Shown here piece after piece: positions 34,430 through 52,570 of a DNA stretch of 52,570 nucleotides. Within the stretch, counting starts at the first letter, position 1; every line of letters starts with the position of its first letter. A program made the position numbers and the translations under genes. The notes under the pieces are model-generated. The model was given only the letters and a program-made list of their open reading frames with translations, was not told the origin of the DNA and ran no database searches. Source of the stretch: an uncultured Planctomycetaceae bacterium (lineage in GTDB: Bacteria; Planctomycetota; Planctomycetia; Pirellulales; UBA1268); the NCBI GenBank assembly GCA_903951635.1, contig CAJBCV010000339.1:1-52570 (forward strand), in the 5' to 3' direction.

Positions 34430-37400
34430 GGCGTCGATCCCGGCGATTGCCGGCTCCGTTCGAAGGCATTGAAATAGGCGTCGAGCCCATCGCGAAACTC
34501 CTCTGGCAACACCCGGCCGCTCTTTCCCACCGCCTGCTCCTCCTCCGGGGCTTCCAGTCGAGCGCGGGCATTGACGCCAGCCCCGAGTCGGGCAAGCGCC
34601 GAGTCGCTCGTCGAGCCGCTCCCACCCCCCCCGGGGGTATTCCCGCCGCCGCCACCACCGCCTCCACCGCCGCCGAACTGCGACTGGAGGAGAAGCTCGA
34701 TCGCCTCGGTCTCGGCGGCGATCGCCCGGCGGCCGGTGTCGGGGCTCGCGAGGATTCCCGCCGCCTCGTCCATCACCCCTTCGACCGCCTGAAAGAGGCG
34801 GATCTCCCGGGCAAACCGCGGCGGCTTGTCGGCCGCCGGCAGCAGTTCCCGCTCCATCCGCTCGATCGCTTCGTCAAACCGCACCGGGCCATCGGGCATG
34901 TCAGCGAGCTTGTCGATCATCGCACCGACGCGGCGGGCGAGCGCTGCTTGCGTCTCTGCGAGGCCGCCGGCGCGGGTCTTGAACGCGTCGGCGTCGAGGG
35001 CGGCGCGGCGCTGCTCGGCGACACGGGTCTCCTCGCGGAGATTCGTCTCCGCCTCGAGAATCTGCATCGCCTCGAGGACAATCTCCGGCGGCAGGTTCTC
35101 CGCCGGTGGGCTCTGCCCCTGGCTCCCCTGGGAATCCTTCGGTGGGGGAACGAGTTCGTCAGCCCAGCGGTCGAAGGTGTCCGACCAGAACTCCGATCGA
35201 GCAATCGACAGGCCGGTCTCCTTCGGAATCTCGGAGGAGAGTTGCCGCAGGCTGCCGAGGACGTCGAGTTCCTTCATCTCTTCGATGACCGTGCGGATCG
35301 CCGGCTGCGGACGACGCTCGGCATAGGCATCGAGGTCGTCCATGAGCACCGACATCCGCTCCCCCACCTGATCGTTGCCCCGAGTCGCCATCTCGACCTT
35401 CTTCACCACCGTCTCGTCCTTCGTCAGACCGCGGCGACGGCCGAAGGCGCCGGAGACGACGGCCGACAGCCCCTGGCCGACCTTCAACTCGTTCCGCGAG
35501 GCCGCCTTGAGCCGCTTCACGAACGTCGTCCCCTCGAGCCGGGCCATGACGTCGGCGAGTTGCCGGGCGATGGCGGCGAAGTCAGCGATGAGCTGCCGCT
35601 GCTTCTCGACCGCTGCCGCCAGCAGCGGCTGTTGGGGAGCCTTCCCCCTCTGCCCCTTCCCGCCAGGGAAAGAGCCGACGGTCGTTGTCGGCAGACCGAG
35701 CGTGCCCTCCCCTCCGCCGCCAGCAGGGGAATCGTTGGGCGCCTCCTCGCGCTCCCGAGGCGCCGAGCCCTCGCCATCGACGACCTGTGGCGCCGGGGGA
35801 AGCGCCGACGGATCCTGCGCCTTCCCCGGCGCCGGCTTTCCTTCTTGGCCACGATCCTCACCGACTCGCTGCGGTGGAACCTGATCCTGGGGGCTTGCCT
35901 CTCCCTGCGCTTCGCCAGGCTTGCCCGGCGTCCCCGGCTGGGAGGGGCGATCGCTTTCCTGGCCGGCGGCGCTCCCCTGACCGGCCGCATTCCCCTTCGG
36001 GGCATCCGCCGCGGCCTGAAGCAATTCGCCGACGCCCGGCATCCGCGCGGCAGCCATCTCCTCCATCGCCTTCACATGCCCGGCAAGCTCCTCGAGCGTG
36101 CCGGCCTCGAACTCGGGGTTGCGCATCGCTTCACGAACCAGCGCCCCCCCCGCCTCGGCCAAGCGCCCCAGGCGGCGGCCGTTGTTCCGCTCCGCGGCGG
36201 CCTGCTCGCGGATCGCCTTGCGGCTCTCCGGGGCGTCGAGCTCCTCGGCCGACATCGCTTCGAGCTGTTCGTTGCGGGCGAGCAGTTCCAGTTCCCGGTC
36301 GCGGATCTCGGCTGCCTGCTGCCGCCAGCGGCCGATCTGTTCGTTGATCCAGAGGGCATGGTCGGCCGAGTTCATGACGACGAACGTCGACGGTGCCGAA
36401 CGGATCCGCTCCCGCCCGGGGAAATAATCCTCCACGAAGGCGCGCACCTGGATTGTCTGCGGCGCGATGCCGAGGTTCGCCGGCGCGAACGTTCCCACGG
36501 CCTCGAGGGCGTCGGCCTCGGGTGCCCCGCTCGCGAGGATCTGTTCGCCGCGGGAGCCTCCCTCGTCGCTTCCCACCCACTCGAGCCCCACCTGCTTGAC
36601 GCCGAAATCGTCGCGCGACTGGAGCGTGAAACGAACCGTCTCCGAGTCGAGGAGCACCCCCTTGCCGCCGAGGCCGTCGACCGTGATCGTCGGCGGCTCG
36701 TCGTCACGGGCCACGAGGCTCACCGTGAGCGGCTTGCCCCCGGAGAGGCCGAGCCGATCCTCCCAGGCAAAGGCGAGATCGACCGGCTCCTCGACGAGCC
36801 TCTCCGGGGCAACGATCGTCGCCGACTCCGGGCGAACGTCGCTGCCGTCGATCGAAGCGCTGGCCAATTCCCGGTTGGCCGTTGCCGTCACCGCCACGCG
36901 GCTCCCCTTGACCACCGACAAGCCGCCGCCGCGCAGCCCCTGCGTGATCGGCGCCTCGATGCCGAGATAGTCGGGAAGATGGACGATCGCCGATAGCGCG
37001 GTGATTTCCGGCCGGAAGGTGGGCTGAAGCGTCACCTTCTGGCGGGCATCCCCCACCGCCAGTCGCAAGCTCGCCGGACTCACCTGGGGGGCAAGAGCGA
37101 GCGCGTAGGCCTCCCCGTCACGCTCGGCCGAAACGACCCCGCCGCCACCGATCCGGGCCTTGGCCCGCGCCGGTCGCCACGCCGTGGCCCCATCGAGGCG
37201 GACGACGAGCTCGGCCGGCTCGCCATGGGGAATGACGACGGTTTCCGGAAGCCGGTCGATCCGCGCGAAGGTGTAGCGCTCCACGAGCCGCCACGGGGCG
37301 AGAAACCGCTGCCAGGCGTTGGCCGCGGCGGCAGGCACGACGAGCCCGAGCACGCCAGCGCACACCAGCGGCACGGAAACCAGCGCCAGCCAGAGCCGGT

Positions 37401-44900: not shown

Positions 44901-45104
44901 TCAACTGCCGCGGGAGAGCGGTGCAGCATCGGACGAGCGGATTCCGGCTGCCTTTCGCTGCCGCTGTCGGATCAGCGCCCGGGAGACGTTTTGGCCGATG
45001 CGGTGCGCGGCCCGGTCGACGGCCACGGTCCAGTCGGAGTCGACGACCATCGCGACGACGAGGCCGACGCCGTCGTGACCGATTCGTTCCAGGCCCACAG
45101 GCAC
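44901..45104 (-). CDS. Possible small hypothetical protein (~67 aa)
   Basis: GC3-rich frame (HDGVGLVVAMVVDSDWTVAVDRAAHRIG) in an otherwise empty gap; start uncertain. Confidence 0.3.
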   Translation of the reverse strand: MPVGLERIGHDGVGLVVAMVVDSDWTVAVDRAAHRIGQNVSRALIRQRQRKAAGIRSSDAAPLSRGS

Positions 45105-45227
45105 TTCATTGCAATGCAGTAAGGATCGCCGGTCGAGGGCTGTTATTGAGTCACAATGCCGACGGTTTCGAAAGGAACTGAGGGTCTCTCTCCGCGTTCC
45201 GATCGAACCAAAACACAGCCACAAGCC

Positions 45228-45665
45228 ATGACGCTTCGCGAACTCTTCGATTCGGTCACGTCGTCCGCGGCCGGTGGGTTCCTACCGATCGTGCTGCCAT
45301 CAACGCCGCCCGACAGCAGGACGTTCAAGATCCGGATCGACAATCCGCGGGGTGTGCCGGCGCACTACGGCGTGGCCCGTCTGCGACGAACGGGCCGGCC
45401 GGTAGCGGAGATCGATGTCGCGGAACGACGGGTTGGCGTGCCGACGCGGCGGACGATTCAACTCCCGCTCGACGAAACCTCGGTCACCGCCGATCACCTG
45501 ATCACGATCCGTGCCGGCGGGCGGACGTCGAAACTCGTCCTTTACCGGGAACTCCTCGCCGAGTGGCTCAAGGGCACGACGCCCGAGGTGAGCGTCTCGA
45601 TCGCCGCCACGGGAGCCGTTCGCTTCAGCGTCAGCCACCCCGTCCGCCAGCCTGGAGCGGCGTGA
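45228..45665 (+). CDS. Hypothetical protein
   Basis: GC3-rich frame with protein-like composition (MTLRELFDSV...). Confidence 0.55.
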   Translation: MTLRELFDSVTSSAAGGFLPIVLPSTPPDSRTFKIRIDNPRGVPAHYGVARLRRTGRPVAEIDVAERRVGVPTRRTIQLPLDETSVTADHLITIRAGGRTSKLVLYRELLAEWLKGTTPEVSVSIAATGAVRFSVSHPVRQPGAA

Positions 45666-45740
45666 CGCTCTTTGACGCAGCCGCAGTTTGCAGCGGCACG
45701 AAGGGTTGGGGGCGCGACCTGGGACTGCGGCGAAGATCGG

Positions 45741-46607
45741 TCACGTGGATCGCATCGCCGTCTTGCCGAGAAAACGCCCCAGGGCCGCTCCGCCCAAGGC
45801 CAGTCCAGGGATCAGGAGCATGTGGTTCTCGTCCAGCAGGAACAACGACAAAAGACCGGCGCAGCCGCCGAGAACGAAGCCCAGAACGCCTCCCAAGACG
45901 CTGCCGAGCAGTTCGGCTGGGCGGAAGGTGTTTTCCACGGTCAACCCGGGCAGAGGGGCTTCGCTCACCGCATTGGCGAGCACATCCAGCAGGTCGTTGG
46001 CGACGGTCAACAGGCTCTCGCGTTCCCTGCCTTCCAAAATGGTGTCACTCACACCGGGCCTGAGGGTCCGGGTCTGCGGGGCACGCATCGTCAGCCCCCC
46101 CTTCCCCACCTCGATCGATCCCGTGACGGCGGTGGCCAGAAAACGGAGAACGCTGGGCTTGCAGATCGAAGCCATCTCGGCAGGGCTGGGAACGGGCTCA
46201 TCGGTGGAGTGTGGAGATGCCGCTAGGGCGCGGCGGACGCCTCCACCGAAGAGAAGGTAGTTGTTACTGAAGGCCTCGAGCATCCGCTGGTCATCGAGCG
46301 GGGCGGTGGCTGCCAGCTTCAACTCGAGCCCCTTGATACCCACGATGCTCAAGGCTCCAGCCTCGCGCCGGGCCACGAGGTCGAACGAGGGGAGGTTCAA
46401 TCCCGCGGTGGGGATCACGACGATCGTCTGCCAAACGGAATACACCGCACCGTCACTGGGCTTTTCCACCCGAACATCGACGATTTCGAACAGTCTGTTT
46501 CGATCGATTCCGAGAACGTGATCGCGGGAACTGCCTGCCTGCCCGGCCCGGTACTCGTATCCGTTCTCCTCGGCCCAATCGAGATTTTTGTTTCGAGGAC
46601 TGTTCAT
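45741..46607 (-). CDS. Hypothetical protein with two C-terminal TM helices
   Basis: MNSPRNKNLDWAEENG..., WQTIVVI..LNLPSFDL; hydrophobic C-terminus. Confidence 0.6.
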   Translation of the reverse strand: MNSPRNKNLDWAEENGYEYRAGQAGSSRDHVLGIDRNRLFEIVDVRVEKPSDGAVYSVWQTIVVIPTAGLNLPSFDLVARREAGALSIVGIKGLELKLAATAPLDDQRMLEAFSNNYLLFGGGVRRALAASPHSTDEPVPSPAEMASICKPSVLRFLATAVTGSIEVGKGGLTMRAPQTRTLRPGVSDTILEGRERESLLTVANDLLDVLANAVSEAPLPGLTVENTFRPAELLGSVLGGVLGFVLGGCAGLLSLFLLDENHMLLIPGLALGGAALGRFLGKTAMRST

Positions 46608-46814
46608 CGGTCTGTTCTCGAGTGAATCGGCAAGCACCGGCCTGAAGCGGCCCACGCCTTCCCGACTGCGGGGAAGGCTACATAATGCTCCCGAGCAGGC
46701 CGTGGAGAAAGTGCCCGTCGCCGGATGCGGCAGCCGACACTCCCGAAAGACCTCATCCCCCCCCACCTGCGCCAGAGTACGGCCTGCCTCGGAGAAATCA
46801 CGGATGAACCAGAA

Positions 46815-47699
46815 ATGGTGACAGGTGACCGTCTGTTGCTCGATGGCGCAACCGGCACGGAATTGAACCGGCGCGGGGTGGATACCGGCTTGCCGCTGTG
46901 GTCGGCGAACGCGCTCACCACGGAGATGGGGTTGAACGTCTTGCGTCAGATTCATCTCGAATACTTGACCGCCGGTGCAGACATCATCACTGCCAACACC
47001 TTTCGCACGCATCGCCGCGTGCTGGGCGGCAAAGGGCGCACCGCACGGGAACTGACCGTACGCGCGGTGGCGACCGCTCGAGAAGCTGTCTCGGAATACG
47101 GGCGACCTGCACAGGTTGCCGGCTCGGTATCCCCACTCGAGGACTGCTATCGCCCCGACCTCGTGCCAACCGACGACGAGTGCCACAGCGAGCACTCGGA
47201 GCGCATCGATCATCTCGTCGAAGCGGGCGTGAACGTGCTGTTGCTCGAGACGATGAACTCAGTTCGGGAAGCCGTCATCGCGGCCACGTTGGCGACGATC
47301 ACCGGTCGGCCCACGTGGGTCAGTTTCGCCTGCGACCGTGAAGGTCGAATCCTGTCTGGCGAGACGCTGGCGGCTGCCGCCGCGATGTTGTTACCGCTGG
47401 GGATAACGGGCTTGGGCGTGAATTGCGGACCGACCGACACGCTCTCGAAACCACTGCGCGAGTTGCGATCGGCCTGCGGCCCTGACTTCCCTCTGATTGC
47501 CTACGGAAACGTCGGCTATGCCGACGAGGCTCAAGGCTGGATCAACACCGACGCCATTGCCCCGGATGGCTACTTGCGACACGCTCAAACGTGGCCGGCG
47601 CACATTGTGGGCGGCTGTTGTGGCACCACACCGGAGCACATTCGCACCCTCCGGGCTGCGGAGAGCGTCCGTCGTTCCGGCCTGCCTTGGAGATCCTGA
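46815..47699 (+). CDS. Homocysteine S-methyltransferase family protein
   Basis: LLDGATGTEL, AGADIITANTF, GLGVNC, IVGGCCGTTPEHI (Zn ligands). Confidence 0.92.
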   Translation: MVTGDRLLLDGATGTELNRRGVDTGLPLWSANALTTEMGLNVLRQIHLEYLTAGADIITANTFRTHRRVLGGKGRTARELTVRAVATAREAVSEYGRPAQVAGSVSPLEDCYRPDLVPTDDECHSEHSERIDHLVEAGVNVLLLETMNSVREAVIAATLATITGRPTWVSFACDREGRILSGETLAAAAAMLLPLGITGLGVNCGPTDTLSKPLRELRSACGPDFPLIAYGNVGYADEAQGWINTDAIAPDGYLRHAQTWPAHIVGGCCGTTPEHIRTLRAAESVRRSGLPWRS

Positions 47700-47919
47700 G
47701 CCAGTCGACATGAAGGTCTCTGCCGAATCGACCTCAGCGTCGCGAAGCGCCACGCTGCACCCGAGAATCGAACGAACACAATGATGCGGCACGGCGGCGA
47801 TCGGCTGGATCAGCTTATCCAAGGCAGGCCAAAAGCATCACAGCCTGCCGGCGCCTCGCCCCGGCCCCCGCATGTCGCTTGGCACAGGACACGCAAGCCG
47901 GTCACGCACACTCCTGTAG

Positions 47920-48438
47920 CTACTCGGAAAGAACCTTCACGCCGCTCAGAGAGCTCGATATCCGGTCACGTTCTTGGGCTGTGAGCCCCGTCCATTTCGA
48001 CAACGTCACCGTCTTCAATCGTGGCAATCCTAGAAGGGCGTCGAAAACGCTCGCATCGTGAACGAATTGATTTAAGGAGAGGTGTTCCATCCGAGAGAAA
48101 TCTCTCAGGCCCGACAAACCATAGATCTCCTCACAATCCAACTCCACGCTCTTCACGGACGCAAAGAGGTCAATTCCAACGGTGTTCACGAGAAGTGTCG
48201 GCAGTGGACAGCATCCGGAGGCTACGTACCAGCCTCCTTCGACGCGGTAGTCCGGCGTCAACCCAACTCGGCCCTGTTGCGACTCCACCCAGCGCCGACC
48301 CCGAAGTTGCGATTGGGCTGGAACCACAACGAGAGCAAGAAAGAGAGCGACATAGCCAACCGCGATCAGCAGCACTCCGAGTGAGAGTTGTCGCCACCAT
48401 GCTTTTACAGACTGACCGAGAACGGAGCGACTCATCAT
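47920..48438 (-). CDS. Hypothetical membrane-anchored protein with LRR-like C-terminus (distal cassette)
   Basis: RQLSLGVLLIAV TM; LSGLRDFSRMEHLSL, LLGLPRLKTVTL. Confidence 0.55.
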   Translation of the reverse strand: MMSRSVLGQSVKAWWRQLSLGVLLIAVGYVALFLALVVVPAQSQLRGRRWVESQQGRVGLTPDYRVEGGWYVASGCCPLPTLLVNTVGIDLFASVKSVELDCEEIYGLSGLRDFSRMEHLSLNQFVHDASVFDALLGLPRLKTVTLSKWTGLTAQERDRISSSLSGVKVLSE

Positions 48439-48544
48439 CCGGCGTACCTCAACTGGGTTGCCTGAGAACACCAACGCCCACGCCCCACCGAACGCTGTGA
48501 CCGACACTGATTTCCGAAAGCGTGGGGCACGCCCACGACCATCC

Positions 48545-48629
48545 AACGAACGTCCCCGATCCATGGCTCGCGGCCAGAGGATCCTCCCACTGACATTCAT
48601 CGCGAGTCGATAGCATCGGTAGGTTTGTT
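48545..48629 (-). other. Degenerate attC site (7th)
   Basis: Minus strand AACAAAC-CTACC-GATGCTATCGACTCGCGA...CCGCGAGCCATGGATCGGGGAC-GTTCGTT, alignable to the site at 49529-49616. Confidence 0.5.
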
Positions 48630-48878
48630 TTTGCGGGGCGGAGTCTCCTGAAGCCCCGCCAGTCGCCAAGCCCACCAGGCAATGACTGCTGCAAGCCACA
48701 CTGATCCGAAGGCGAAGGCTTGTGACGCCACCCGAATGAACGGAAAACTATTGACGGGTCGCTCACCTCTCCACAACGGCCACGCCTCTACTTGGAGAAA
48801 CTCAAGCACCGTGCTTCCCGCAGCCCACATCGGCAGAAGCCATCCTATTGAGAATGCAGCAATCACAACCCGTCGCAT
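48597..48878 (-). CDS. Small hypothetical membrane protein (cassette)
   Basis: MRRVVIAAFSIGWLLPMW after GAGGG; two hydrophobic segments; ends inside the attC-like site. Confidence 0.55.
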   Translation of the reverse strand: MRRVVIAAFSIGWLLPMWAAGSTVLEFLQVEAWPLWRGERPVNSFPFIRVASQAFAFGSVWLAAVIAWWAWRLAGLQETPPRKNKPTDAIDSR

Positions 48879-48898
48879 AATCCCTCGTTGATCAAAGT

Positions 48899-48987
48899 GG
48901 AGAGCGGCTTCACTCAACTGGTTGCCGCCAGTGGGCCTTGATTTCAGGAAACGCCCCTTCGGCAATTCGGGTGCTTCTGAGTTCTGC
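48899..48987 (-). other. Degenerate attC site (6th)
   Basis: Minus strand GCAGAAC...TTGCCG...CGGCAA..TGAGTGAAGCC-GCTCTCC; TGAG(C/T)GAAGCC is shared with the proximal attC sites; GTT is mutated. Confidence 0.45.
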
Positions 48988-48993
48988 CACGCG

Positions 48994-49392
48994 TCAGGCG
49001 TTCGGATTCCGCCTGGGTGTGAAGATTTTCTTCTGCTTGACACCACCAGACTTGTCGTACGTCGTCCACTCGCCGATTTTCTTGCCGTTTTGGTATTCGC
49101 CTTCGTCCCAGAGCTGCCCATTTTCGTAGTGTCTAATCCATAACCCCACCTGGACTCGATCTGCGAATGATCCGGTTTGGAGCGGTTGGCCATTCTCACG
49201 CCACCATTCCCAAGATCCGTCGAGCTCACCATCAGCGTAGGTGCCAACCGCTTTCGTTTGTCCATTGCGGTAATAGAACTTCCACTTGCCGTGACGCTTG
49301 CCAGCCTTCATTCTCCCTTCCCCGGACACCGTGCCGTCAGCAAAAAGCTCCTTGGTTGGGCCATCAGCAGTCTGCAATGAAGCCTTCTTCAT
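48994..49392 (-). CDS. MORN-variant repeat protein (YwqK-antitoxin-like; cassette)
   Basis: Repeats GKRHGKWKFYYRNG, GELDGSWEWWRENG, GLWIRHYENG, GKKIGEWTTYDKSG; SD GGAGGAG. Confidence 0.85.
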   Translation of the reverse strand: MKKASLQTADGPTKELFADGTVSGEGRMKAGKRHGKWKFYYRNGQTKAVGTYADGELDGSWEWWRENGQPLQTGSFADRVQVGLWIRHYENGQLWDEGEYQNGKKIGEWTTYDKSGGVKQKKIFTPRRNPNA

Positions 49393-49528
49393 TTCTCCTC
49401 CATTCGGTCATTCGGCTGTGATGTCTCGTTGAACAGGCCGGTGAAGGCCCTCTCGCGAATGGCCCACACCTCGGAATCCAGCGCCAGGAAGGTCCGATCG
49501 TCAATCGAGTGCATGACTGAGGGATCCT

Positions 49529-49616
49529 ACCCGACGCTCGCGATCAGCGACTCGCGACAAGACGCGGACCGCGCCGCCGGATTCTGTCGCAAGTCCGCTG
49601 CATTGCTGAGTTCGCC
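49529..49616 (-). other. attC site (5th), R' box mutated
   Basis: GGCGAAC-TCAGC-AATGCAGCGGACTTGCGACAGA...TCTTGTCGCGAGTCGCTGATCGCGAGC-GTCGGGT; 88 bp. Confidence 0.7.
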
Positions 49617-49625
49617 AATTCCGCG

Positions 49626-50021
49626 TTAAGGCCCCGGAACAATCGAATGATAGAGAAGGGCTACGGCATTCATGCAGACGGTTGCCAACAGATATCCGAG
49701 CACGCCGTGCAAGGCCAGATACCCGACCCCTCGCCAGCCGCGACTCCAAATCACATACACGGGCACCAGCAGCCCTGCGGCCAAGAAAAACCATTGCTGT
49801 GACAAGAGGGGAACAGCGCGGCCACGGAGGCGAGCGTCGACGACCACCCACCAACTGGCCACCGCGTAGAGGGAGAGTGGCACCATGATGTCGAGACGCG
49901 ACGGAACCGTGGGCCACGCGCTGCGAATGCCCCACATCGCGAAGAGCGAGTAGTATGCGAGCAGAAACCAGCGGGTGTGGCGGAAACCCGTATCTGCTCG
50001 CGTCCATTGCGGGCGTTCCAA
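49626..50021 (-). CDS. Hypothetical 4-TM membrane protein (cassette; possibly frameshifted from ATG 50040)
   Basis: Hydrophobic ORF (WFLLAYYSLF.., VPVYVIWSRGWRG) bounded by attC sites; the only in-frame upstream start is TTG. Confidence 0.6.
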   Translation of the reverse strand: MERPQWTRADTGFRHTRWFLLAYYSLFAMWGIRSAWPTVPSRLDIMVPLSLYAVASWWVVVDARLRGRAVPLLSQQWFFLAAGLLVPVYVIWSRGWRGVGYLALHGVLGYLLATVCMNAVALLYHSIVPGP

Positions 50022-50052
50022 CCACTGCTTCGATGCTCATGTCGACTGACCC

Positions 50053-50149
50053 GTCGAACGGTCGCGCTCAGCAGCCTCGGGGGCCGCTGGAGCACTGACC
50101 CTCAAAAAGCCTACCCGCTCCCGTCGTCTGCTGCAGCATCTGGTTTTGC
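50053..50149 (-). other. attC site (4th)
   Basis: GCAAAAC-CAGAT-GCTGCAGCAGAC...GGCTGCTGAGCGCGACC-GTTCGAC; 97 bp; same family as 51601-51696. Confidence 0.75.
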
Positions 50150-50491
50150 GTGCTGCGGCCTCTCGTACCCCAACTCGTCATAAAGATAGCGGTCGAAGTA
50201 GGCGCGTTGCGCCTCGGCGCTCTCAGGGAGCGAGAGCCACTCCTGGGCAGCGCGGATCATCGCTGACTCTGCCTGATCGGCTTCCGCAGGCTTCTGCTCA
50301 ACCCAATCCGTCAGCGCGCCCCAGATGAGCCACAGGGGCCACATGATGGTTTCGGAGTCCGTTGCGTGCCGCATTGCGGTGCCCCACACACGCCATGCCG
50401 CCCGATAGGCAGAGCCGCGACGCGACACAATCAAGCGCATGCACGCCTCAATGTCTCGCATCGCCACGGCGAGTGCCGCTTCATCCGTCAT
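50111..50491 (-). CDS. Hypothetical protein (cassette)
   Basis: GGAG + ATG 50491; WPLWLIWGALTDWVE; C-terminus AKPDAAADDG reads into the attC. Confidence 0.7.
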   Translation of the reverse strand: MTDEAALAVAMRDIEACMRLIVSRRGSAYRAAWRVWGTAMRHATDSETIMWPLWLIWGALTDWVEQKPAEADQAESAMIRAAQEWLSLPESAEAQRAYFDRYLYDELGYERPQHAKPDAAADDGSG

Positions 50492-50511
50492 CGGTGCTCC
50501 GATATCCTGCC

Positions 50512-50601
50512 GCCGAACAACCGCGATCAGCAGATCCCAGGCAGAAGAACCATCCACGCCGCAGGAGTCTATCGCGATTCCGCTGCATGGTTTTAGTAGC
50601 C
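50512..50601 (-). other. attC site (3rd), partly degenerate
   Basis: GGCTACT-AAAAC-CATGCAGCGGA...TCTGCTGATCGCGGTT-GTTCGGC; 90 bp. Confidence 0.65.
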
Positions 50602-51108
50602 GCCGCCGTCTCGCCGGTACAGCGACTCGATCATGCGCCGCAGGGCCGAGTCCTGAACTCCACTCAGGTCCGGCTGTGGGGCAGATGGTTGATCCGGACG
50701 CGGCTCCCTCAACCCTGGCGCCTTGGCATTGGCGACCTGCCGCCACGACTCGCACAACTTATCCCAGGCCAAGCGCGACTGCGGACCGAGCCACTCGTAG
50801 AAAACCCAGGGGCCAAATGACCGGTGCGACCCGATGTTCTGGATGTCTTCGATGATGCCGATGACCGCTAGTTCATTTGCCTCCTCGTCCCCATCGCTCA
50901 CGCACCGTTCCAGGAGCGCAAACGCACTGGGAAACTCCGAAAGGTCCCCGCGTTCGAAGCTGTCCACGATGTGGTGCGCTACCACGCCAGCATCGTTGTA
51001 GTGGCCTCGTTCTGGCTCGCCGCTCCAGGACTCCAGGTACTGCTGCCAAGCCGGGCCGATCGTGGGGCAGACAGTGAGGAACGCCGGAACGACATCCGCA
51101 ACTTTCAT
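50593..51108 (-). CDS. Acidic helical protein resembling toxin-immunity proteins (cassette)
   Basis: FPSAFALLERCVSDGDEEANELAVIGIIEDIQN...WLGPQSRLAW; family resemblance is from memory only. Confidence 0.7.
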   Translation of the reverse strand: MKVADVVPAFLTVCPTIGPAWQQYLESWSGEPERGHYNDAGVVAHHIVDSFERGDLSEFPSAFALLERCVSDGDEEANELAVIGIIEDIQNIGSHRSFGPWVFYEWLGPQSRLAWDKLCESWRQVANAKAPGLREPRPDQPSAPQPDLSGVQDSALRRMIESLYRRDGGGY

Positions 51109-51126
51109 CCGAGGGGCCTCTCTGTC

Positions 51127-51161
51127 GGCTAACGGCTTCGCTCAGCAGCGCCTGGTTCGGC
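51127..51161 (-). other. Internally deleted 35-bp attC (2nd)
   Basis: GCCGAAC-CAGGC-GCTGC-TGAGCGAAGCC-GTTAGCC: both outer ends of the 96-bp family joined at GCTGC. Confidence 0.75.
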
Positions 51162-51587
51162 GTTCAGCGGGTGCCAGATGGCCAACTGTCCGCCGCCCTG
51201 CGCAACCACAAGGCTGCCGCCGGGGCCACCCAACTGCCAGCTCTCGTACCCGGACGACAGCGGCACCAGTTCGAGCCGCGTCCCTGACGCGAAACGAATG
51301 ACCAAATCGCGGGTCTCGTCGCGGACCTCGGCCGCCGCAACCACCGCGCCGCCAATCAGCCGGCGGCACTCGGCCTCGGCATCGACCGGCGCAGGCAGTC
51401 CGTACTGGTGGCCGTGGTCCTCGCTACTCAGGGCGATGCCGCCGTCGCGGATCACCCGCCACGGGCAATCGGCCCGCACCCCGGCGTCTGGGCCAAACCC
51501 GAACTGCCAGGAGCCTTGCTCGGTCCAATTCACCTCGGCGAGCGTCCGTCCGACGAGCCAACCAAGATCGTAGCGATTATCCACCAT
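51129..51587 (-). CDS. DUF6188-like beta-rich protein (cassette)
   Basis: DCPWRVI..SSEDHGHQYGLPAPVD, DLVIRFASGTRLE..SGYESWQL; C-terminus AEPGAA reads into the attC. Confidence 0.7.
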   Translation of the reverse strand: MVDNRYDLGWLVGRTLAEVNWTEQGSWQFGFGPDAGVRADCPWRVIRDGGIALSSEDHGHQYGLPAPVDAEAECRRLIGGAVVAAAEVRDETRDLVIRFASGTRLELVPLSSGYESWQLGGPGGSLVVAQGGGQLAIWHPLNAEPGAAERSR

Positions 51588-51600
51588 GACGCCCTCTGTC

Positions 51601-51696
51601 ACCGAACGGCTTCGCTCAGCAGCGGCGGGGCCGCTGAAGCCTTGACCTTCCGACAGACTACTCGTCCCCGCCGTCTGCTGCAGCGTTTGGTTCGGC
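51601..51696 (-). other. attC site (1st, intact)
   Basis: GCCGAAC-CAAAC-GCTGCAGCAGACGGCGGGG...CCCCGCCGCTGCTGAGCGAAGCC-GTTCGGT; 96-bp imperfect hairpin with extra-helical bases. Confidence 0.88.
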
Positions 51697-52014
51697 GTAC
51701 GACCTCAACTCCAACAGCAGCTCCCGATCCGGCTCCGGCCCGTAGCATTCGGCGGTGAAGCTGATGCCGGCCGCCCGCAGAGGGGCCACCAACTCCTCGG
51801 CGCGGGCCGGCAGGTCAGCGACCGGGCCGTGCATCAGGATCGGTGAGGCGGCGTCGATGACCAACTCTGCCCAGTCGCTGATGACCTCGTAATCCACTCG
51901 CGAGCACTTGCGGACCCGCCAGCCCAGCGTTCCGTACAGCCCGGCCACCTCCGCCGGGGTTAGGGGGGTGTCGAGGGCGCTAAAGAAGTGGGAGCCGTCA
52001 GGCACCTCTGCCAT
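51658..52014 (-). CDS. Hypothetical protein (first cassette)
   Basis: GGAGG upstream of ATG; 118 aa, acidic; C-terminus AEPNAAADGG reads into the attC. Confidence 0.7.
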   Translation of the reverse strand: MAEVPDGSHFFSALDTPLTPAEVAGLYGTLGWRVRKCSRVDYEVISDWAELVIDAASPILMHGPVADLPARAEELVAPLRAAGISFTAECYGPEPDRELLLELRSYAEPNAAADGGDE

Positions 52015-52030
52015 CCCCTGCGCCTCCGTA

Positions 52031-52049
52031 GCCGAACTTGTATTTATAC
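52031..52049 (-). other. attI-like site
   Basis: Minus strand GTATAAA-TACAA-GTTCGGC, comparable to the attI1 core CCCTAAA-ACAAA-GTTRRRY. GTTCGGC is the exact complement of the first attC's GCCGAAC. Confidence 0.65.
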
Positions 52050-52325
52050 GGTCCGTATATCCACCCGCGTCTGCGTGTTAACGCACCTGCACCGCTATTG
52101 CCCCTTGGACGCAGTGGGCTTCTCGGCAATGGCTTACGTTGATTCCAGCCCCCAGCCGATGGCGCGTTAACAGGCTCCACCTGCAGTATATCCACCCTCG
52201 CCCCGCACGCCGCAAGTGGGGGGGGCCGCCGTCAACCTCCCGTCGCCGATCGGCAAAGACGGCCCCTGTCGCCGCCCGGGCTCGCGTGGCCACGGTGGAA
52301 CGCTGTGCACCCGCGGCTGCGCGTG

Positions 52326-52570
52326 TCAGGCGTCGTCGGTCGCTTGAGCGTCGTCGTCTCCGTCGCCTGTCGCTTGAGCGCCGTCGTCGCTGTCGAGCCC
52401 GCGGAGGATTTCAATCGCTTCCTCGAGCGTCGGGGCCTCGCCGCTGCGGACATGGCCGCGGCGGTCGGCTGACTCCAGAAGCCGCAGGCTGTCGTAGTCG
52501 GGATGCTCCTCGAGCCGATGGCGGGCCCGGTGCCCGAGCGTGCCGGCGTGGAGGGCCGTCGCCACCGGCA
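52326..52570 (-). CDS. C-terminal part of a gene entering from outside the window (possibly HD-domain protein)
   Basis: GC3-rich frame TLGHRARHRLEEHPDYDSLRLLESADRRG..TLEEAIEILR; the family call is tentative. Confidence 0.55.
   Translation of the reverse strand, partial: PVATALHAGTLGHRARHRLEEHPDYDSLRLLESADRRGHVRSGEAPTLEEAIEILRGLDSDDGAQATGDGDDDAQATDDA

Follow-up and report, generated by a model that had tools for sequence, protein, structure and literature searches.

Near the right-hand end of the 52,570-nucleotide (nt) window analyzed here, a stretch that constitutes the entire contig C339 of an uncultured Planctomycetaceae bacterium, lies an array of small genes laid out in the manner of integron cassettes and headed by an element that resembles the integron attachment site attI. 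The gene for an integron integrase, intI, that would be expected beside such a site is located on another contig of the same genome, and the relation of the array to that distant integrase is the subject of this analysis. The genome is a metagenome assembly bin of 573 contigs, 91.7% complete, and all genomes with which it was compared are likewise metagenome bins. The array spans 47.8–52.04 kb on the minus strand. The eight short minus-strand open reading frames (ORFs) reported in the original prediction, which had been drawn from the letters of the window, are all present between 47920 and 52014; they are 93–172 aa long, share a single orientation, and are accompanied by a ninth of 41 aa. In seven of the eight long ORFs (c1–c6b and c8) as well as in the 41-aa ORF, the G+C content at third codon positions (GC3) exceeds that at second positions (GC2), the pattern expected for coding sequence in this genome; the exception is c7, in which GC3 is not above GC2 (0.56 vs. 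0.55). Cassette by cassette, the overall G+C content ranges from 0.55 to 0.69, compared to 0.68 in the remaining window.

Numbered outward from the attI-like element, all eight cassettes lie on the minus strand. Cassette 1 (51607..52036) holds an ORF with no Pfam family (51658–52014, 118 aa) and the recombination site attC1, while cassette 2 (51133..51606) holds a DUF6188 ORF (51129–51602) and a shortened attC. This attC is only ~35–41 nt long and resembles a standard attC that has lost its middle part between two short direct repeats. ORF2 ends with a stop codon (51129–51131) within the R′ box, on bases already assigned to the next cassette. Cassette 3 (50518..51132) carries a DUF7674 ORF (50593–51108) and an attC of a second sequence type, cassette 4 (50059..50517) an ORF of no family (50111–50491) and attC4, and cassette 5 (49535..50058) an ORF with no family above cut-off (49626–50021) and an attC whose R′ box reads GTCGGGT; cassette 5 is also ~75% similar to a stretch of an array locus (L020) in another species. 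Two ORFs share cassette 6 (48991..49534), the 41-aa ORF at 49389–49514 and one with MORN_2 repeats at 48994–49392, and the 3′ boundary of this cassette is putative. Cassette 7 (48551..48990) contains an ORF of no family (48597–48878) and attC7. Cassette 8 (47778..48550) contains another such ORF (47920–48438) and may be closed by a terminal GTTCGTT at 47771–47777, as read from the sequence, the attC covariance model described below giving no match there. DUF6188, DUF7674, and the MORN_2 repeats are the only three Pfam families in the array ORFs, and a scarcity of Pfam-named ORFs is usual for chromosomal integron cassettes.

Seven attC-type repeats had been claimed between these ORFs. A BLAST search of the array against its own genome returned related pieces of 80–100 nt on three other contigs (C530, C561, and C24), and a covariance model, R1, was built with nine attC sites of this genome as seeds, two of them from the window. 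The consensus fold of the nine sites follows the attC plan R″-spacer-L″...L′-spacer-R′, with bulges and a variable loop: a 6-bp R″/R′ stem (GCCGAAC...GTTCGGC), unpaired spacers, and a bulged L″/L′ stem, for a total of 21 pairs, three of which show compensatory changes. The covariance-model check suggested at the outset did find matches with this custom model. Run with filters off on both strands of all 52,570 bases, R1 gave four matches at E < 0.01, each of them between ORFs on the minus strand: the seeds attC1 (51598–51699, 105.9 bits) and attC4 (50050–50152, 96.7 bits), and the non-seeds attC7 (48542–48632, 31 bits, E 3.5e-5) and attC2 (51124–51164, 24.9 bits, E 1e-3), the last being the 35-bp repeat of the original prediction. 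Two further claimed repeats, attC3 (50509–50604, minus strand, 13.1 bits, E 0.63) and attC5 (49526–49619, minus strand, 14.3 bits, E 0.34), score at noise level, the best score outside the array being 14.9 bits (E 0.23). These two make up the second attC sequence type, are direct repeats of each other (family D6), and sit on the right strand exactly at ORF boundaries. At the seventh, between ORF6 and ORF7 (~48880–48990), R1 found nothing, and this site is at best a decayed remnant. The quoted heptamer pairs, in which the first seven bases of a cassette roughly complement the R″ box of its own attC, are in the sequence as written. Over the whole genome, R1 at E ≤ 1 gave 25 matches, clustered on 10 of the 573 contigs. 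This clustering, together with the position of the attCs at ORF boundaries and, on the loci, always downstream of an attI copy, rules out dispersed repetitive extragenic palindromes or miniature inverted-repeat transposable elements (REP/MITE). A crude attC finder that combined a regular expression with folding produced many false positives in this G+C-rich DNA and was dropped in favor of the covariance model.

Immediately before cassette 1, again on the minus strand, lies the attI-like element (52031..52316), the full extent of which is common to a paralogue on contig C146 (C146:2323–2597; 83% identity over 278 nt by blastn). Its final 58 nt, the attI core (52031..52088), are shared with the attI adjacent to intI on contig C537. 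Alignment of 52400–51990 with the DNA downstream of that intI yields a 58-nt block of 91% identity (612–669 on C537) ending in ...ATACAAGTTCGGC, as well as the upstream blocks GATATACTGC, GCCTGTTAA, and CGTAAGCCAT; directly after GTTCGGC, the two sequences diverge. The claim of an attI-like core ahead of the first cassette is thus borne out by homology to the genome's own intI-adjacent attI. The core contains three directly oriented GTTA/GTTC motifs, the last of which is the crossover, located between G52037 and T52036. In attI1 of class 1 integrons, the GTTRRRY crossover is likewise preceded by further directly repeated integrase-binding motifs; the three motifs here are candidate IntI-binding sites, and the likeness is one of plan.

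Farther from the crossover, the GATATACTGC box (52183..52192, minus strand) is nearly invariant in 31 aligned copies of the element and contains TATACT, a candidate −10 element of a cassette promoter judging from its letters. An imperfect inverted repeat of 97 nt, TGTTAAC...GTTAACA (52076..52172, minus strand), lies inside the element and folds as a hairpin in three copies. Over 31 copies, 76.8% of its cells are paired, compared to 28–49% in slid-partner controls. The attendant covariation is modest, being matched by 16 of 500 shuffles, and the pairing test is suggestive only. RNAalifold on the 31 copies yields −3.3 kcal/mol and 8 pairs, that is, almost no consensus fold, and no folded RNA is claimed. 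In the attI type of two other genomes of the genus (G007 and G013), the inverted GTTAAC boxes switch jointly to GTTATC/GATAAC, a paired change that, as far as sequence goes, is compatible both with a hairpin and with a pair of half-sites for a single binding protein. The left part of the element (52316–52230) is common to close paralogues only. An Rfam search of 45000–52570 at E ≤ 1 returned no match, and hence no attC or leader family from Rfam in this region, while a promoter and terminator scan of 47700–52570 called zero promoter-like sites and one terminator-like site, fewer than in shuffles.

The neighbor of the window's attI is an unrelated gene rather than intI. Only its 3′ end is present (52326..52570, minus strand, co-directional with the array), truncated by the end of the contig, which terminates at 52570, 540 nt upstream of the crossover. 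From its stop codon (52326–52328) to the crossover G at 52037 are 289 nt, and its full-length orthologue (L012:333–1385) has no Pfam match. Orthologous loci on longer contigs are also without intI. As had been predicted, no integrase is adjacent: there is no IntI-like match at E ≤ 1 in the 52.5-kb window, nor any such remnant in the fetched flanks of the other intI-less copies. The original prediction had reasoned that the gap leaves no room for the usual divergent intI. Its conclusion stands, while its argument does not, since in this lineage intI lies upstream of attI and is co-directional with the cassettes, so that room for a divergent gene is beside the point.

A search of the genome for an IntI-type recombinase found exactly one, encoded by an intact gene on C537 and the single TIGR02249 match over the cut-off (453 bits vs. 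265). This protein aligns end to end with the solved Vibrio integron integrase 2a3v_A, over residues 49–359 (E 4e-81), with an aligned counterpart to the IntI-specific inserted domain of the latter, and bears the motifs RLME..R, HTLRHSFATHLL, and IYTHV, which we take to be the catalytic motifs of the recombinase. Its gene is transcribed toward the cassettes and ends ~290 nt before GTTCGGC; an ORF and an attC follow. Each of 17 genomes of the genus has either zero or one intI, with 12 matches at E ≤ 1e-30, 7 of them over the cut-off. At some loci, only the C-terminal part of intI is present, from about residue 169 or later, as in L038 (G005:C28), L040 (G016:C127), and L037 (G015:C212) and at the metagenome loci L125, L162, L140, and L142; at some of these, more upstream DNA is present, and the truncated gene may be a recurrent allele.

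The single intI of this genome is matched by six copies of attI, the window included. Five of these, on C339, C146, C466, C35, and C537, were found by blastn and alignment; the sixth, on C284 (34870–35034), is more divergent and is followed by a cassette and an attC. The search for further copies of the attI region, another suggestion of the original prediction, was thus productive. The genes upstream of the copies all differ: a gene without a Pfam family in the window, and elsewhere a divergent extracytoplasmic function (ECF) sigma factor with a kinase, a methyltransferase, HupE/UreJ, and intI itself. A cassette array is visible behind the copies on C339, C466, C284, and C537, whereas C146 stops inside the core and C35 starts at the crossover. 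Breaks at or within ~30 nt of the crossover, as in C146 and C35, also occur in the metagenome contigs L125, L130, L140, L105, L107, and L129; such assembly breaks could reflect either a first cassette that varies in the population or the repeated core. The array on C466 includes an Imm50 immunity-protein cassette.

Beyond this genome, the attI element is found in 12 of the 16 other genomes of the genus, with up to seven matches per genome, and in none of eight other genera of the family. Each genome of the genus that is well sampled holds several attI sites of the integrase-less kind. Thirty-seven aligned copies are conserved up to ...ATAC(A/G)AGTT, at which point conservation stops and the heptamers vary (GTTCGGC, GTTCTGG, GTTATCC, GTTAGGC, GTTCCGT, and others). 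In sequence terms, conservation that ends at GTT is the signature of a G|TT crossover. All 29 unique attC matches on 35 loci lie downstream of the attI copy in the same orientation. An attC match follows 22 of the 32 copies that have any downstream sequence, and five of the ten copies without a match have less than 410 nt downstream. The secondary sites are paralogues of the primary, intI-adjacent attI over 58 to ~190 nt. Of 31 copies placed in a tree, 16 secondary ones of the long type group together (100/100), separately from those adjacent to intI, and nested among the 16 is a subclade (100/100) made up of the three from the window's own locus. A third group unites the attI beside a second, 71%-identical intI clade (G007 and G013) with some intI-less copies. 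A second syntenic platform locus exists in three species, where an intI-less copy lies 110–130 nt behind a tRNA-Gly(tcc)/tRNA-Arg(cct) cluster (L016 1211–1372, L027 736–898, and L020 1732–2108); tRNA-linked copies in three species argue for platforms at fixed, inherited loci. Outside the genus, the 500 nt downstream of intI in G065 match themselves alone in that genome by BLAST, while the same region in G059 gives weak matches in three genomes of genus g4. BLAST thus detects no multi-copy attI in these two lineages, a weak negative because attI is undefined there.

The junction of the upstream gene with attI recurs in five other species, with a flank 89–94% identical to that of the window, and cassette content at this same locus differs among the relatives; between the window cassettes and these five loci, attC-sized pieces match and nothing else does. 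Comparison with relatives, which the original prediction had proposed, thus reveals a conserved flank and different cassettes. The orthologous locus in G001, for instance, starts with an antitoxin/ParE-like pair followed by a pentapeptide-repeat gene. Some cassettes are common to different platforms, and in these the homology begins at the G of GTT. A 473-nt cassette, 100% identical, occupies the first position in two species, in G005 at the window-type locus and in G002 at the tRNA locus (L013 and L016), behind attI heads that differ from each other at 2 of 40 positions just upstream of GTT and that are 88% (G005) and 75% (G002) identical to the window head. In G016, an identical cassette stands first at the primary attI and second in a secondary array, with homology from the G of GTT onward in both, and the first cassette of L051 is likewise the second of L049 (99.3%). 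A cassette of the primary array of G002 recurs as the third cassette at the window-type locus of G007 (96.5%), and an intI-less copy in G009 has a first cassette similar (89%) to the one at the primary attI of G011.

Public metagenomes extend these observations. The exact 31-nt core of the window has no match among metagenome contigs; a degenerate core pattern is found on 65. Of the 35 contigs with at least 700 nt upstream of the core, 13 carry intI and 22 do not, and some of the intI-less contigs carry 7–10 kb of upstream DNA, up to 10.7 kb. In the 20 contigs with an intI match, the gene is always co-directional, and its end precedes GTT by 286–303 nt in 19 contigs and by 452 nt in the other. 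Sixty contigs with at least 25 nt downstream display 48 distinct first cassettes. Taken together, identical cassettes across species and platforms and highly diverse first cassettes point to recent insertion. Three cassettes were each seen at copies of two kinds, one adjacent to intI and one with the core variant ...ATACGAGTT, a variant that is intI-adjacent in none of 19 copies with at least 700 nt upstream; among the three partner contigs that share cassettes, L131 alone has enough upstream length to show that intI is missing. A 19-mer scan of assembled-genome contigs returned 26 stretches, some in bins labelled as other phyla, which were not interpreted because, in 596 Gb, a 19-mer should match a handful of times by chance.

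Logan contigs from four lake and freshwater runs were compared with 47000–52570. A 435-nt contig of X3 spans exactly 51603–52037, that is, cassette 1 from crossover to crossover, while a contig of X8 joins 51608 to 52033, placing cassette 2 beside an attI core. Contigs of X2 and X3 bridge the attI element and the upstream gene (52169–52441 and 52093–52396, respectively). Parts of the array left uncovered by contigs of X7 and X2 were not taken to indicate absence. The letters at a loose end in X3, at 52033, are those of the first cassette at the intI-adjacent locus L124; this end probably belongs to another platform and was not counted as variation here. In X8, one contig has 13 other letters in place of 47832–48594 (763 bases, comprising ORF8 and part of the preceding attC). 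Its ends are not clean G|TT crossovers, and the change is an indel polymorphism at the array's far end.

With good though not complete confidence, the locus can be read as a secondary attI platform that belongs to a chromosomal integron, has no integrase gene beside it, and is loaded in trans by a single IntI. A platform loaded in trans was one of the two origins offered by the original prediction, and it is the one that the evidence favors. The enzyme responsible would be the single C537 IntI. In such a mechanism, IntI produced at the primary locus on C537 would act in trans on all attI copies, presumably by binding the GTTA/GTTC motifs of each, and would recombine the attC of a free circular cassette with any attI copy at G|TT. 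New cassettes would enter at position 1 of each array, attC × attC recombination would remove cassettes, and the TATACT box may drive expression of the first ones. On a broader scale, there is perhaps an even chance that this genus of freshwater Planctomycetota possesses a distributed integron, in which one integrase serves many vertically inherited attI docking sites at fixed loci, such as those behind the window's upstream gene and behind the tRNA cluster, each of which may have its own promoter-like box.

Several observations weigh against loading in trans. In the X8 contig that skips cassette 1, the attI side of the joint comprises 27 letters. The attI type of C284 accompanies the other intI clade (G007 and G013; IntI 71% identical), while the only intI detected in the genome belongs to the first clade, not to the type of C284. 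The bin being incomplete (573 contigs, 91.7%), a second intI could have gone unassembled. Beside the primary attI of several relatives and metagenome contigs, only the 3′ part of intI is present, so activity may have been lost in some lineages. R1 is a custom model rather than the standard IntegronFinder attC model, and it leaves three of the seven claimed sites at noise level or unsupported. Finally, a consensus promoter scan calls nothing in the element, the TATACT box included.

The other origin offered by the original prediction, an integron that lost intI and kept attI, would make these arrays relics of once complete integrons, frozen or losing cassettes only. Loss of intI is indeed one of the proposed origins of integrase-less arrays in the survey by Cury et al. 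(PMC4889954), and in this genus partial intI genes lie beside some primary attI copies. However, none of the intI-less copies has an IntI remnant next to it at E ≤ 1, and the window's homology to the paralogue begins only ~10 nt past the stop codon of the upstream gene. The 16 long-type secondary copies form a clade of their own, distinct from the intI-adjacent copies, and the first cassettes at intI-less copies are very diverse, some being 100% identical across species and platforms. As an account of the present loci, the relic scenario is therefore unlikely; loss of intI is retained as a possible distant origin of the sites, one that explains the data poorly. A second proposal concerns the element itself. 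Its 200–280 nt could be mainly a promoter or leader (RNA) module traveling along with arrays, of which only the last few dozen bases are a recombination site. In 31 of 31 copies, the TATACT box is conserved along with several blocks remote from the crossover, and the 97-nt inverted repeat persists with some changes in both arms. Yet the near absence of a consensus fold (−3.3 kcal/mol), the covariation equalled by 16 of 500 shuffles, the lack of an Rfam match, and the empty promoter scan make it quite unlikely, and it is in any case compatible with, rather than opposed to, a platform loaded in trans.

That the window is a metagenome bin contig ending in the upstream gene, and that two further contigs of this bin terminate at the attI core or within it, invites the suspicion of an assembly or binning artifact, whereby array and head would derive from a different organism or strain with an adjacent intI and the junction would be chimeric. 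This is very improbable: the junction was assembled independently in five other species bins, in one case on a 63.9-kb contig in a genome whose intI is on another contig; the X2 and X3 contigs span 52169–52441 and 52093–52396; and metagenome contigs that reach as far as 10.7 kb upstream of the core are without intI. Least of all, insertion of cassettes at scattered attG-type secondary sites instead of a dedicated attI, although insertion outside att sites is documented in 10.1101/2022.09.11.507474 (cited in 10.1101/2025.06.18.660453), is barely credible for sites that are syntenic, conserved across species, and paralogous to the primary attI over 58 to ~190 nt.

A secondary platform loaded in trans bears on the cluster of attC sites lacking integron integrase (CALIN; Cury et al. 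2016, PMC4889954). According to that survey, CALIN elements are more numerous than complete integrons, neither their origin nor their activity is settled, and half of them occur in genomes that encode IntI. The origins it lists there are intI loss, rearrangement, insertion sequence (IS) activity, and insertion at secondary sites, a spare attI not being among them; it also states that no attI is known for the majority of integrons and that attI could not be searched outside classes 1–3 (PMC4889954). By the IntegronFinder definition, the window locus is a CALIN in a genome encoding IntI elsewhere: it has at least two co-oriented attCs, small ORFs, and no nearby intI. It differs in that the cluster is headed by a recognizable, conserved paralogue of the primary attI. 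The closest parallel in layout is the chromosomal integron of the Treponema denticola type, in which intI is transcribed towards attI (PMC3607928). As in that type, intI here is upstream of and co-directional with attI and the cassettes, and the cassettes are mostly genes of unknown function along with toxin–antitoxin pairs; unlike that type, for which the same source states one attI per integron, six attI copies here accompany one intI. The attG sites (10.1101/2022.09.11.507474) likewise place cassettes outside a canonical integron, but they are loosely defined, whereas the present sites are conserved attI paralogues at fixed loci, each accumulating an array. No description of a multi-copy or orphan attI was found in the literature, supplements aside, where per-genome CALIN tables could list these loci. 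What is new is a natural lineage with one intI and several conserved attI paralogues that are differently loaded, some with cassettes common to the primary array.

Such a lineage offers a concrete and testable origin for integrase-less arrays, as well as a natural set of attI variants for one integrase. It also gives reason to seek attI-like heads before CALIN elements elsewhere. Annotation tools limited to the attI of classes 1–3 would file such loci as orphan arrays. If the genus does possess a distributed integron, a cell could capture and express cassettes at several parallel “first positions,” escaping the polarity that a single promoter imposes on classical integrons. Should the pattern prove general, many CALIN elements of other phyla may turn out to be unrecognized secondary attI platforms rather than debris.

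Two smaller observations concern the contents and the far border of the arrays. Toxin–antitoxin-like pairs (Unstab_antitox with ParE-like) are the first cassettes at two intI-less attI copies; toxin–antitoxin or immunity cassettes are located at L012 1595–2235, C284 ~35141–35657, and L008 8557–9078. Adjoining the far end of the window array, the segment 45190–47743, which includes the plus-strand ORF 46725–47699, is 87% identical in G006, is absent from the syntenic place in G007, and has a partial match in G012; given this patchy occurrence among relatives, the variable region may extend past 47920.

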